DNA of 64,000 nucleotides from Escherichia coli. GTDB lineage: Bacteria; Pseudomonadota; Gammaproteobacteria; Enterobacterales; Enterobacteriaceae. This document shows positions 6,001 through 12,000 of this stretch, piece after piece. Positions within the stretch are counted from its first letter, which is position 1. Every line of letters starts with the position of its first letter. A program made the position numbers. The stretch is taken from NCBI RefSeq assembly GCF_041886205.1, contig NZ_CP169029.1, one strand, 5' to 3'.

Positions 6001-9000
6001 CTGTGGCAGGATTGTGAATAAAGTGTCAGCAAGCAACGGGGCATCGTCCATTCAAACATCTATAAGGAAACACCATGAGCAAGGTATTAGTTCTTAAATC
6101 CAGCATCCTGGCAGGGTACTCTCAGTCTAATCAGTTGTCCGATTATTTTGTTGAACAATGGCGCGAAAAGCACTCCGCTGATGAAATCACCGTTCGCGAC
6201 CTGGCTGCAAATCCGATTCCGGTACTGGATGGCGAACTGGTTGGCGCTCTGCGTCCGAGCGATGCGCCGCTGACTCCGCGTCAGCAGGAAGCTCTGGCGC
6301 TTTCCGATGAGCTGATTGCCGAGCTGAAAGCCCACGACGTTATCGTTATTGCGGCACCGATGTATAACTTCAACATCTCAACTCAGTTGAAAAACTATTT
6401 TGACCTGGTTGCACGCGCAGGCGTTACTTTCCGCTATACCGAGAACGGTCCGGAAGGTCTGGTAACGGGTAAAAAAGCCATCGTTATTACCAGCCGCGGT
6501 GGGATCCACAAAGATGGACCAACGGACCTGGTGACGCCGTATCTGTCCACGTTCCTCGGCTTTATCGGCATTACCGATGTGAAATTTGTCTTCGCCGAAG
6601 GGATCGCATACGGTCCGGAAATGGCAGCGAAAGCGCAGTCTGACGCGAAAGCGGCCATCGACAGCATTGTTGCTGCATAACCGGACACGATCTTGATGTG
6701 GACTGTAGTTCAGTCCACATCTCAATCCACTTACCTGTTTTCCCATAATTTCAGCATCGCTTTGTGATCTTCCTTAAGCACAATATGCGAACGTCTGGCT
6801 CGAATATAACTAATCGCTTCATCAACGGTTTTACAGTGTCCGTAACATAACAACCATGCCGCCACTACCAGCGCACTGCGCGATAATCCCAACGCGCAAT
6901 GGACCAGAACGCTGCCTTGCTCTTCGCGTAATGTTTCCAGCATCGCCACGGCCTGTCGGAGATCCCCCTCTTCCGGAACCACCAGATCCAGCATCGGTAC
7001 ACAGAAATAGAGTCGATCTTTTGTCGCTCGTCCCCGAGGGAATTCAAAGGTGACGTCCAGAACCGCATTCTGTGCCGGAATATGTCGTGGAAACGCCCCT
7101 AAATAAACACCAGCAGTAATTTTGCTCACCGGCTCCAGGCGACGACAAAACCAACGCATAGACAGCCACATCCCGATGCGCCAGGGCAATGTCAGCCAGT
7201 AAACGGCGGGCGGGAGTTTCCCCTGACTATCTTTCCCTGTTGTTATCGCGCCAAGCCCACCGTACCCACGGCCAATAATGAGTAGCGATAATACTGGCCA
7301 ACATAACCAGACTGACCACCATAACTGAATCATCACCATTAGCTCCATCAACACAATGCACGAGCCCGCGCCTACGACATATGGCAGTGCTATTTTGATT
7401 CGACGTTGATCAGGTTTCTGATAATTCCAACGACGATCGACGGGCACCATCCAGTCAATCAACATACCTACCGCCAGCCCTGTGATGACATCAATAAAAT
7501 GATGCTGCCAGGTCGTCAGAGTAGAAATAGCGATGAGTAAAAACCATCCGCCACAGACTTTACGCCACCTCTCAGCCAGATGCTGACGAAAGTGACGCCA
7601 AAGTAGCCAGCAGAGAATAATATGCAGCGAAGGAGACTGGTTATAAGGCAGATCAAACAGTTCAAGTTGCGAAAATAGCCATCCCGTCACCCCACTCACT
7701 TCAGGACGGATAAAACTAAACTTCAGCGGATAGAGCAAAAAACCGCAGCAGGCCATTACCGTTGCCAGAATAAGCCGGTGGACAAGTCGGCGCTGTTCGA
7801 ATGTCGTGCTACAAACGAACAGCGAAAATCCATATAAAAGATCCAGACTCCAGTAAGGAACAATAGTCCAGGGAAGAAAAGGGATCGCCGTTTCCCAACC
7901 GAATACCTGACTGGGGATATCATGGCTGTTAAGGTCCTGAACCGCGGTGAACTGATTAAGAGATCCATAGGTGAAGAAGAAAAACGGGGCCAGCAACAAT
8001 AACCAGCCAGCGCCTTGTAGCAATACGTTCCGACGTTCAGTTATCACGACGCACCGCCATCGAAACCGTAAAAATACCCCACTCATCAATCCGTTGTGTG
8101 CATTTATCAAATCCGGCATCACGCACGAGTGAATCCATCTCCTCTTGCGAACGCACGCGCATGACCCACGGTTTACCATCTTTATGACTGGTTAACACCC
8201 CGGCAATCAGCTCCAGTTGTGGGTGCCACCGCTGCCCGGTGTAGATGAGAATGCCGCCCGGTTCGATGGCATTGGCAAGACCTGCGAGTGAGTTTTTTAC
8301 CTGCTCATTTTCGGGAAAAAGCTCATACAGGCCAGAGACAATCGCCAGCGTAGGCCGCGGAGTTAACGCGCTGAGTTCCTCCGGGTTAAACGCATCGCCC
8401 TGTTCAAAACGCACCCGCCCAGACATTCCCCGTTGAGCAATCATCTCTTGCCCCTGTGCAACATTTAACTCGCTGTAATCACGTAACAAAATATCGCTTA
8501 CGGCAGGCTCGTTTGCCAGTGCATCCAGTACATAGCGCCCATGCCCTGCGGCAATGTCAACCACGCGGACGGCTAAACCTTTGGCGTGGAGATCGGCAAC
8601 GGCTTGTTTAATCAGTATTTGTAAATGGGTTTTGCGCTGGCGAATACCGCGCCAGCCAACACTGTTCAGGTAGATTTTGTCGATTAAGCGCCCGAATGCG
8701 TTACTGCCTTGCGGTTGATTTTGATAGACATAATCCAGCGAACTGCCTGAATCAAAGCCAGTGCTCATTCCGAGATGCAGGCCCGCAGAGTGCGCCCCGA
8801 ACAATTTCATCGCCTTTCGCATAAAGCGATACGCCAAATCAACCGGCGATAATGGCACGGGTCCACCAGAAAGGAGCCGCCATCGATCCGCTGATGGTCC
8901 TGTGCGGTCTTCATGCTGATAATCAAATTTTTGCGACTTGTTAGCATATAAACGACTAATAAAGCTTTGCATTTTTTCAAATGCCTGCGCCCTGTTCTCT

Positions 9001-12000
9001 TCACCCAACGTGTCGTGATAAAAGCCTGGCAGCAGATGCAGCTCTTTCAGAGGGCTACGTAATCTCTGATAAAAATCAATCTGCGGTTGACGATGCACCA
9101 CATAGTCATCGCCTGATATCAGAAGTTGCGTGGGGAGCGTAATCGCCGCCGCATCGCTAACAATACGTTCAGACGTTTTATAGAGATCGAGCAAGATATT
9201 GACGGCAATCGCCCGTGTGATCAGCGGATCATTATTGAAACTCGCCACCCGTTGCCGATCGTGGGTCAAATAGCGTCCTTTCACATAGGAATTAATAAAA
9301 AACAGACCACGCAGACGATGCCATAACGCCAGCGCAGGACGTGCCAGCGGCACATACAATTTAACCTTAAAGGCCGGAGAAGCCAGCACCAGCCCGCGAA
9401 TTGCAGGCGCATAATCATGAACCCAAGTTGCAACCAGCACTGCGCCGACGCTTTGCGCGATCACAACCACCTCTTCCAGTCCGACATGGCTGTCGCTGGC
9501 AGCAAAACGGATAAAAATCACGATGGGCAATAGCATAAAGAGGATGGGTTGTGACACCAACATCAACAGCAATCCGGTAAGAAGAGAAAGCGCCAGTGCA
9601 GCAAGAGTGATGTGATTCGCTGTAACGTGGTGATTATAAAGCCAAAACATCGTCGGCCTTAACAGCGACTGAAAGAGCGGTTTTATCTGGTAGAGCGTCA
9701 TTATCAATCCTTGATAATTCGGTTTGCGCTATGGTGCATCAATTCCCCTGACGGAGATATCGCAACACGCCGCTTCATTAAAAATTCAGAATATATCAAG
9801 GTATTGGGGACTCACTGCCAGGAATGATTATCCCCAATTAATCAAATGGTTAAGAAACATTACGTTGTGGATCAATACAACTCATCAAGTTTTCTCATCG
9901 CTTGTTCCCGTATTGCGCGCGTCTTACCGTTAAGCGCCAGCTGGCGGACTAAATCCAGTTCAGGGTTAACAAGCTCTAACGCCAGCAAAGGATCACGTTT
10001 CAGCCTCGCCTTTAATACATCAACTGGAAAACGGGGATTATTCATCGCCACAATCCACCACTCGGGATCAATTTCTGCCGCCAGTACTGCAGGCGGTGTG
10101 TGGCGGTTGTTAAGTGCGCCGAACTTGAAAAATGTGAGATTGCTTTTCGCCAGTGTACTCCACCATATACGATCCGGTTGTTTTGCCAGTACATCCAGTT
10201 GTGCTAACGCATCGGGGTCGAGTGCATAATAAACACGTAATGCTTCATCAACCTGCGCACGGGAGCTGTTTTCCTGCCTCAGAAAAAACTTCGCCCAAAT
10301 ATCATTGCGTGGCGTATTTTGCTGTAATTCCTTGAGGACAACAGCGGGTAAATTATCCCAACTAACTAATGCACTCTCTAAAAAGTCCCAGTCTTCCAAA
10401 CGTATCAGGGCGGTGGCATTTAATAGCATCTGGTCATCAACTTCACCGTGGCTGATAAGCTCAGACAAAATCATATCAGCGCTGGTTTCATATGCAGCTG
10501 AATCTGCTTTCGGATTATTTTTCCGATGTGATAAAGCACGTTGCCAAATTTTTTGTTTCATCGCCGTACTCAGATACTGATTTTTCGCCAGATTACTCCA
10601 CCCCTCAGGATCGTTGAAACGTGTCAATAACCGTTGTAAAGCAGCGTCAGAGTGAATTACCTGCATATCCCGACAGCAAAAGTAGGCAGGGGATTTTTTC
10701 TCCATCCTTTTAACAAAATTAAACTGTAAGTTATCTGGCAACGCTAAAAATAACGCACCTATTAGATCATCGTCATTCTCGAATTTTTGGTATAAATATA
10801 CTGCTATTTTGTCACTCTCTTGTGGCGTCATCCGCAACAATTGACCATGGTGTTTCATCTCTGCCAGCTTTAACGCTAAGCTTGTGACAACATCGTTTGA
10901 TGAATCGTTCGCCAACTGCATTGCCTGATTGTAGGTGAGTTGTCCTCCAGCACCGACCTGACGAATAGAGGAATCATCACTGCGGATATAGCCATCAATA
11001 ATGGATTCGGGCAATAACCACGCATCTTTATAAAGCTCCTGAATGATCATATCCCAATCTCTTTTCGCCAGAGTCATGACGATATCCAGAGGGAGATTTT
11101 CACGTAGCGCAAGATTCAACGGACCGACACCATCAGGTAGATGACTCATTCGCGTCATTATTTCGACAGAGAGCGGTTCACGGTCGAGCAACCCCAGAAC
11201 AACAGGCTGGTAACCCAATTGCTGATCGGTCAACTCCAGAATCTCATTGTCCGGCATATATCTCGCCATACTTTCAATCGTTTGTTCATCATTGCTATTA
11301 ATAAGTTGTTTGCGTAGGTTAGCTGAAATTCCTTTAAGCCTTGGGAGAGTTCGCATTATGGCAAGATCAAATGTCGCAATATCTCGTCCTTCAAATGCAG
11401 CAACGTTGCCTTCATCCAGCATTTGCAATTCCTGCACTAACTCAGGAGAAGGCTTAGGGCGAAACAGCGCTTCTTTTTTCATCTGATTACAGACATTCCC
11501 TGCCATGCGAATATTGCTTCGCTTAAAAATTTCTTTCAGAGCATCTTCATCATTTATTCGACCCTAATAATATGCATCAGGATTTATTATCATCAGCGCT
11601 TTTTTGACATTTTCAGTGTCATTTTTGTCACTCGCACGGACCATGAATTCACTATTTGTCGAAGACGCAACAACAGGTGCAATTATGTCATTGATAAATA
11701 TCCCACGCGCATTAATACTCCCCTTAATCGTAGACGGATTATCGTAATATGAGTCGATAAATACCAGTCCACTTGCATTTATCGAACCGGTAATTAACAG
11801 TGGCGAATCTGTAACTATATTTGTTGCCGTCACGTTACCGAGAATAACCCATGGATTAGAAAGAGAGAAAGTGGAAATATTACCTTTGACTGTCAAATTG
11901 CCAAGAACAATCAATTTTTGATTACTCTCTATATTACCTTCTACCACTAAATCGCCACGATGCACTTTCCAGTCCGATGCAGATAAACCGAAGGGGACAA

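Follow-up and report, generated by a model that had tools for sequence, protein, structure and literature searches.

The ynbABCD operon of Escherichia coli K-12 consists of ynbA, of the CDP-alcohol phosphatidyltransferase family; ynbB, a CdsA paralogue (phosphatidate cytidylyltransferase); ynbC, a hydrolase/methyltransferase; and ynbD, a PAP2/dual-specificity phosphatase. In the window, by which we mean the whole 64,000-nucleotide stretch of E. coli DNA analysed (contig NZ_CP169029.1), ynbD is preceded by a single long open reading frame that joins the 5′ end of ynbA to ynbC. The initial annotation had proposed such a fusion of 556 codons within about 3.1 kb separating the ydbD and ynbD stops. 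The ynbD and ydbD stops, at 6731 and 9872, lie 3,141 bp apart, and we found the ORF on the minus strand with 556 codons from a TTG start at 9707, or 554 from the K-12 ynbA ATG at window position 9701. The locus contains the following features:

6731–8047, minus strand: ynbD (PAP2/dual-specificity phosphatase), intact by ORF call and comparison with K-12
8037–9707, minus strand: fused ynbA′–′ynbC ORF with its TGA stop at 8037–8039, by ORF call and K-12 comparison
8049–8972, minus strand: complete Methyltransf_20 domain (PF12147; class I SAM-dependent methyltransferase), model positions 1–309 of 309, E = 9e-152, by Pfam
8997–9494, minus strand: alpha/beta-hydrolase remnant, Hydrolase_4 (PF12146), model positions 71–238 of 239 only, by Pfam
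9507–9511, no strand: deletion junction with the 5-bp microhomology ACGGA (TCCGT on the coding strand), by alignment to intact operons
9512–9701, minus strand: ynbA-derived 5′ segment, YnbA residues 1–65, by alignment to intact operons
9708–9871, minus strand: ydbD–ynbA intergenic region (upstream region of the operon), kept, with five substitutions relative to K-12
11564–11566, minus strand: ydbD amber codon, TGG to TAG (W205*), by sequence comparison

Aligned by BLAST to the intact operons of K-12 DH5alpha (L002) and CFIAFB20180540 (L004), the window splits into two collinear pieces that lie 1,610 bp apart in those genomes, and exactly this length is missing from it. Lost with it are YnbA residues 66–201, YnbB in its entirety (residues 1–298) and YnbC residues 1–96; all 897 nt of ynbB fall inside the missing segment, and the gene is thus absent from the locus. 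The join leads in frame from ynbA codon 65 to ynbC codon 97. A deletion of about 1.6 kb that removed ynbB and fused the two genes in frame was what the initial annotation had deduced, but the retained part of ynbC is larger than the two-thirds it assumed, as residues 97–585 are kept (489 of 585, 84%). The first 65 residues of the ORF are YnbA sequence and not a native YnbC N terminus, and neither a full-length ynbA nor a full-length ynbB is present at this position.

The comparison with K-12 also located a microhomology. In the intact operon, ACGGA is repeated directly at the two deletion endpoints, and the junction has it in a single copy; if one mismatch is allowed, the repeat lengthens to 9 bp (ACGGAYAAA). 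It matches the F-[IV]-R codons that YnbA 63–65 and YnbC 94–96 have in common. The breakpoint sequences read AAAACGGACAAA on the ynbC side and CATACGGATAAAA on the ynbA side of K-12, and AAAACGGATAAAA in the window. The 3.3 kb from ynbA to ynbC contain 1,026 9-mer pairs that are equally good and 47 that are perfect. Around the breakpoints in intact K-12, a search found nothing special in the way of longer repeats, direct or inverted, and no Chi site was found in the deleted segment. We propose that a single 1,610-bp deletion with its endpoints in these short repeats, be it ACGGA or the mismatched ACGGAYAAA, removed the 3′ two-thirds of ynbA, ynbB as a whole and ynbC codons 1–96, giving the order upstream region, ynbA′–′ynbC, ynbD, and that its in-frame outcome is due to chance.

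At the protein level, the truncations are those predicted. The hydrophobic stretch at the N terminus (residues 28–71) retains about one and a half YnbA membrane helices, and the catalytic motif (DGxxAR...G...D...D), whose DGxxAR part begins at YnbA residue 72 and thus past the breakpoint, is lost, DGxxAR being absent from the fused ORF as the initial reading had it. Whereas K-12 YnbA matches CDP-OH_P_transf (PF01066) over residues 27–175, Pfam gave no match to this family on the fused protein, which does not contain the full transmembrane domain. The hydrolase fold is entered shortly before the nucleophile elbow AQSVG (YnbC 113–117), again as proposed: the elbow is kept, as is the acid/histidine part of the triad, whose segments GDDYVV and FYHD align to lipase, while the lost part, the first third of the domain, contains the N-terminal strands and the HG segments LFHRGHEHSGR and DARGHGKS and leaves the core fold incomplete. 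Residues 1–96 of YnbC align to residues 16 to ~92 of the Mycobacterium tuberculosis monoglyceride lipase 6EIC, and by this alignment the loss comprises everything N-terminal of the helix that precedes the nucleophile elbow. The methyltransferase domain is complete in length. In the window allele it carries Arg at the conserved YnbC P522 (window 8230), where 108 of 137 homologues have Pro and none has Arg, and Glu in place of Gly551 (window 8143); apart from P522R, its differences fall at variable positions. NCBIfam had no match for the fused protein and gave only subthreshold matches for YnbA, YnbB, YnbC and YnbD. A cluster look-up placed the fused protein among YdbD proteins, which we judged to be an oddity of the clustering, and only the exact-match information was used: 325 contigs in public protein collections encode the identical 554-residue product.

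The allele is not specific to one strain. Among 5,426 complete genomes of E. coli, 193 (~3.6%; junction-spanning queries returned 189 and 193 genomes) have the same junction, and they come from a wide range of laboratories, hosts and countries. An artefact of assembly or sequencing in the window was rejected as next to impossible, since these 193 genomes were assembled independently and some are 100% identical over 5 kb. Carriers include MB53, wlxctx60, G1/2, UMNK88 and CFSAN061761. MB53 and wlxctx60 have a fused ORF identical to that of the window and also the internal stop in ydbD, while further carriers have different flank haplotypes and show as many as 43 differences over 1,671 nt. Of the deletion copies, 17 were examined; they encode eight distinct protein sequences, and all have an open frame. 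In RefSeq this DNA appears as a pair of pseudogene fragments, both of them marked "incomplete" by PGAP in all deletion records inspected; the allele is already recorded there as broken genes. No other single lesion of the operon is as common. In addition, ynbABCD is wholly absent from ~840 genomes (~15%), and ~135 genomes carry other lesions of it, such as IS1 insertions or other deletions.

The ydbD amber reported in the initial annotation is present and shared with MB53 and wlxctx60, and it is a later event, independent of the deletion, as ydbD is intact in G1/2, JP538 and B-1109, which have this deletion haplotype too. In other carriers ydbD is variously intact, frameshifted or interrupted by IS1. 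The suggestion of a partly decayed locus is borne out by W205* in ydbD and P522R in the methyltransferase, with the amendment that the deletion is not private to this strain. Downstream, ynbD starts with GTG inside the fused ORF, giving an 11-nt overlap, and continuous translation of the ORF would probably preserve its coupling to ynbD. Upstream, the K-12 ynbA promoter is activated by BglJ–RcsB (PMC3950696). A promoter and terminator scan of 6600–9950 predicted none upstream of ynbA, but it found fewer sites than in shuffled sequences and is uninformative.

The junction is identical in deletion copies whose left and right flank haplotypes form at least six combinations, a pattern that would also be expected if the same 1,610 bp had been lost repeatedly at a hotspot, independently in each haplotype. 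Such recurrence would fit the copy in Z1323CEC0013, in which 2 of 3,670 sites differ from intact K-12 but 45–91 from other deletion alleles, and also the informative SNPs, which lie as close as 24–25 bp to each side of the junction. The junction repeat, on the other hand, is just 5 bp long when perfect and 9 bp with one mismatch, has neither flanking inverted repeats nor longer homology around it in intact K-12, and is unremarkable among the equally good pairs counted above, which favours a single origin. A further argument comes from 9495A, 12 nt from the junction, which is found in deletion alleles only and is common to two deletion haplotypes with different right flanks; replacement of flanks at the junction thus does occur. 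A donor fragment ending inside the recipient's missing 1,610 bp would set the recombination joint at the junction itself. We consider recurrence unlikely, with perhaps a minor chance of being correct, and a single old deletion to be the probable source: it would have arisen once and then spread and persisted, its flanks being exchanged repeatedly by recombination as far as the deletion edge. Six alleles near the junction at first seemed private to the window haplotype, but three on the ynbC side were found in the intact strain C8, and those on the ynbA side alone stay deletion-specific.

It could be argued that the fusion is a functional new gene, in which the YnbA helices anchor the methyltransferase in the inner membrane and selection maintains it, possibly on account of a continued action with YnbD. 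The frame being open in every copy examined across diverse haplotypes, the intact Methyltransf_20 domain, the existence of stand-alone methyltransferase homologues of 260–340 residues, the retained hydrophobic N terminus and the frequency of the allele among lesions of the operon all agree with this. However, an in-frame join has a one-in-three chance, the hydrolase half lacks one third of its core, and the entire operon is dispensed with in many genomes. Most of the variation among deletion alleles matches intact haplotypes and was probably imported by recombination, and thus says little about selection on the fusion. The changes confined to the window-type deletion haplotype are mostly nonsynonymous (five, against four synonymous); among them are P522R, at the conserved proline, and K23N, A50S and L62I, which lie in the 63-codon ynbA remnant. 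Pairwise dN/dS is 0.21–0.57 among deletion alleles, slightly above the 0.15–0.31 among intact alleles, values that cannot settle constraint as they are confounded by variation shared with intact alleles. Selection for a new gene therefore appears improbable to us. Only marginally better are the chances of the broader proposition that the fusion is a membrane-anchored SAM-dependent methyltransferase still working with YnbD, or that the junction marks a deletion hotspot or a selective filter for the in-frame outcome; if either were true, the locus would illustrate how the operon of a cryptic lipid-modification pathway can be remodelled in nature.

We are fairly confident that ynbA′–′ynbC is a decaying remnant, a pseudogene left by a single deletion and an ordinary gene-decay allele, probably of one origin and spread thereafter. 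The strain would lack YnbA and YnbB activity, and any synthesis of CDP-diacylglycerol or of MPIase precursors would for that reason depend on CdsA alone. The hydrolase half is expected to be unable to fold into an active enzyme, and the 554-residue product, if made, would be at most a membrane-tethered methyltransferase remnant; judged by its domain content, with the methyltransferase whole and homologues existing as separate proteins, some residual function is possible. E. coli can evidently do without the operon and is losing it in several ways, given the ~840 genomes without it, the ~135 lesioned otherwise and the normal growth of a ynbB knockout.

The fusion allele leaves current understanding unchanged, and its practical value lies mainly in annotation and in the choice of strains. 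Strains with this allele, among them the porcine ETEC UMNK88, are naturally null for ynbA and ynbB, and in them the auxiliary, cold-related role proposed for YnbB in MPIase synthesis could be tested. The shuffled flanks about one fixed junction also offer a small, clean case for the study of recombination-tract ends at an indel.

Compared with K-12, the locus lies in the same place between azoR and ydbD, has ~97.7% DNA identity in the parts kept, and shares the upstream region, ynbD and the 11-nt ynbC/ynbD overlap; it differs in lacking the 1,610 bp. The closest laboratory counterpart is the ΔynbB mutant (Keio JW1406), which grows normally and shows no significant change in MPIase level, CdsA covering the function (PMC6362211). 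Cold-dependent effects of ynbB are reported, as seen in the reference list of PMC11413397. The natural allele resembles this mutant in the loss of YnbB, but unlike it has also lost YnbA function and the N terminus of the YnbC hydrolase. With regard to its formation, the allele resembles another E. coli system: its endpoints lie in a short direct repeat of which one copy is kept, and the junction is precise, here giving an in-frame fusion. Spontaneous lacI–lacZ deletions between short direct repeats, reportedly described by Albertini and colleagues in 1982, are said to be the classic class of such events. Unlike those deletions, the ynbA–ynbC allele is a naturally occurring polymorphism; it has persisted and, having spread, is present on several haplotypes in ~3.6% of sequenced genomes.

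The fused ynbA'-'ynbC reading frame is an in-frame gene remnant left by an ordinary microhomology deletion. In the matching interval of K-12 (DH5alpha, L002), the RefSeq annotation gives ynbD, ynbC (585 aa), ynbB (298 aa) and ynbA (201 aa), in agreement with the four genes named in the initial annotation. The stop-to-stop distance between ynbD and ydbD is 3,141 bp in the window, as the estimate of about 3.1 kb had it, and the interval holds ynbD and one ORF; ydbD, lying beyond it, carries the amber codon reported earlier:

6731..8047, minus strand: ynbD, GTG start, intact
8037..9707, minus strand: fused ynbA'-'ynbC ORF, 556 codons counted from TTG
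11564-11566, minus strand: ydbD amber, TAG where K-12 has TGG, W205*

The first two overlap by 11 nt, and a 164-nt intergenic region, with five positions differing from K-12, separates the fused ORF from ydbD. The ATG at window 9701 is the counterpart of the K-12 ynbA start codon, so that the natural product would be 554 aa.

Comparison of window 6500-11500 by BLAST with two intact records, L002 and L004 (CFIAFB20180540), gave two collinear pieces, between which the intact records contain exactly 1,610 bp. Base by base, the switch from ynbC-type to ynbA-type sequence falls within ACGGA at window 9507-9511: K-12 reads AAAACGGACAAA on the ynbC side of the breakpoint and CATACGGATAAAA on the ynbA side, and the window reads AAAACGGATAAAA across the junction. 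The coding strand there is TTT-(A/G)TC-CGT, and its codons F-[I/V]-R are common to YnbA 63-65 and YnbC 94-96. Lost are YnbA 66-201, the whole of YnbB and YnbC 1-96. Because ynbA and ynbC occupy different frames, the loss of 1,610 bp joins them in frame, an outcome with a one-in-three chance. The initial annotation, which proposed a deletion of about 1.6 kb fusing the 5' end of ynbA in frame to ynbC with ynbB gone, was thus correct overall in observation and interpretation and needed minor corrections; alignment to K-12 sets the length at 1,610 bp and adds the 5-bp microhomology.

The retained YnbA segment (residues 1-65), with a hydrophobic stretch at about residues 28-71, stops short of the DGxxAR motif, whose first residue is 72, bearing out the description of a CDP-alcohol-transferase-like N terminus without its catalytic motif. 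Pfam places CDP-OH_P_transf at residues 27-175 of K-12 YnbA and finds no match to it in the fused protein. The predicted entry into the alpha/beta-hydrolase fold at AQSVG, without the N-terminal strands and HG segment, also agrees with Pfam, where the Hydrolase_4 match covers only model positions 71 to 238 of 239. The 96 missing YnbC residues include LFHRGHEHSGR and DARGHGKS and align to residues 16 to about 92 of Mycobacterium tuberculosis monoglyceride lipase 6EIC, in which this stretch is everything ahead of the helix leading into the nucleophile elbow. The nucleophile elbow AQSVG, acid segment and His segment are kept; having lost one third of the core fold, the hydrolase half is very unlikely to be active. 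Methyltransf_20 is complete (model positions 1-309 of 309, E = 9e-152), and its homologues include stand-alone proteins of 260-340 aa as well as two-domain proteins of about 520-600 aa, so that, judged on architecture alone, residual methyltransferase function is possible.

The allele is found in about 3.6% of complete E. coli genomes. At query coverage of 80% or more, a 300-nt junction-centered query matched 189 of 5,426 genomes and a 600-nt query from another carrier matched 193. The ynbC-side flank was found in 4,583 genomes of this set and the deleted 1,610 bp, at 80% or more, in 4,251, with partial matches in about 135, including other deletions and an IS1 in ynbA (IS1A, strain 5444). Among these partial cases, F6326-C1 shows a 68% match and strain a7 has a different breakpoint. 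About 840 genomes lack any ynbA-ynbC match and match window 6500-11500 only at azoR. The operon thus behaves as accessory DNA; the counts of absent and partial loci show it to be dispensable and under loss by several routes, the 1,610-bp deletion being its commonest single lesion. In LHM10-1 (L025 3900-7400, about window 9540 onward), a resistance transposon has inserted into the ynbA remnant: the junction and 29 nt of the remnant are followed by a Tn3-family inverted repeat, strA/strB (aph(3'')-Ib, aph(6)-Id), IS1133 and a recombinase. CP52E probably has the same arrangement.

RefSeq already flags the allele, both halves being "incomplete" pseudogenes under PGAP in every carrier inspected, and the exact 554-aa protein has been deposited by other pipelines, which call it, for example, "hydrolase"; it is found on 325 publicly available contigs. 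Our literature search found no paper describing the ynbA'-'ynbC allele. An exact-sequence look-up assigned the protein to a 90% cluster of 8,466 members whose representative and all listed members are the 768-aa YdbD (DUF2773), unrelated in sequence; this placement is probably a clustering artifact.

An identical junction on many flank haplotypes is the sole mildly unusual aspect of the allele. Around it (window 9483-9536; L003, L006, L010, L021-L024) we found at least six combinations of left (ynbC-side) and right (ynbA-side) flanks. Z1323CEC0013 is K-12-like on both sides, its two differences over 3,670 nt lying in ynbD; 17MR471 combines a K-12-like left flank with a right flank of another haplotype, which is also found in UMNK88, EC-107 and 2013C-4991, whose left side bears a "B" haplotype beside the junction; CFSAN061761-type alleles join the B left flank to a further, different right flank; 14EC047 is O104:H4-like on the right; and the window type has a left flank identical, near the junction, to the intact strain C8. 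Informative SNPs are at 9483 and 9495 in the left flank and at 9518 and 9536 in the right, at distances of 12-25 nt from the junction. Deletion state and SNP allele occur in all four pairings within 25 bp on either side, a pattern that looks like recombination tracts ending at the indel edge. Recurrent deletion on different haplotypes would account for shuffled flanks around an identical junction, yet we consider it unlikely: the junction repeat is ordinary, as 3.3 kb of ynbA-ynbC contains 1,026 9-mer pairs differing at no more than one position, and 47 perfect pairs, and nothing unusual was found around the breakpoints. Moreover, two carrier groups with different right flanks share 9495A, which lies 12 nt from the junction and in the sample is confined to deletion alleles; this argues that flank replacement extends right up to the junction. 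Plausibly, a donor fragment ending inside the 1,610 bp missing from the recipient could be joined only at the homology boundary. With 17 of 193 alleles sampled, one old deletion followed by repeated flank replacement is the probable history.

These 17 alleles (the window's and those of 16 carrier loci) all have the identical junction and an open frame, with eight distinct protein sequences. As evidence for constraint the open frames are weak, since intact haplotypes also contain most of the variants by which deletion alleles differ. Pairwise dN/dS was 0.21-0.57 between deletion alleles, compared with 0.15-0.31 for intact alleles. The closest intact match to the ynbA-side flank among the 5,426 genomes had four mismatches in 400 nt. 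More informative are the changes specific to the window haplotype, defined as missing from all nine sampled intact haplotypes: within the fused ORF, five are nonsynonymous and four synonymous. K23N, A50S and L62I, three of the former, fall in the 63-codon ynbA remnant; another, P522R in YnbC numbering, affects a column with Pro in 108 and Arg in none of the 137 homologues covering it. Small as the counts are, they suggest that constraint has been relaxed in the lineage of the window.

An internal ydbD stop is present too in MB53 and wlxctx60, whose fused ORF is identical to that of the window; G1/2, JP538 and B-1109 share the window's deletion haplotype with ydbD intact, and further carriers have a frameshift or IS1 in ydbD. 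The ydbD defects thus arose later and independently, the gene being inactivated repeatedly.

Carriers are natural ynbA/ynbB nulls. YnbB is a CdsA paralogue whose overproduction raises MPIase, and a ynbB knockout grows normally without significant change in MPIase (PMC6362211). According to work cited in a review (PMC11413397), ynbB and cdsA expression rises below 25 degrees C, and this up-regulation matters for cold growth and export; the phenotype expected of carriers is no more than a mild, cold-related export defect. BglJ-RcsB, a heteromer that activates H-NS-repressed loci, is an activator of the ynbA promoter (PMC3950696), so the operon may be largely silent under usual laboratory conditions. 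Among NCBIfam families, YnbA (L002 5709-6314) is most similar, though never above cut-off, to archaetidylinositol-phosphate synthase and phosphatidylinositol-phosphate synthase, not PgsA; together with the CDP-DAG synthase YnbB and the PAP2/dual-specificity phosphatase YnbD in the same operon, these similarities hint at a pathway for synthesis and dephosphorylation of a phosphatidyl-X-phosphate with head group X.
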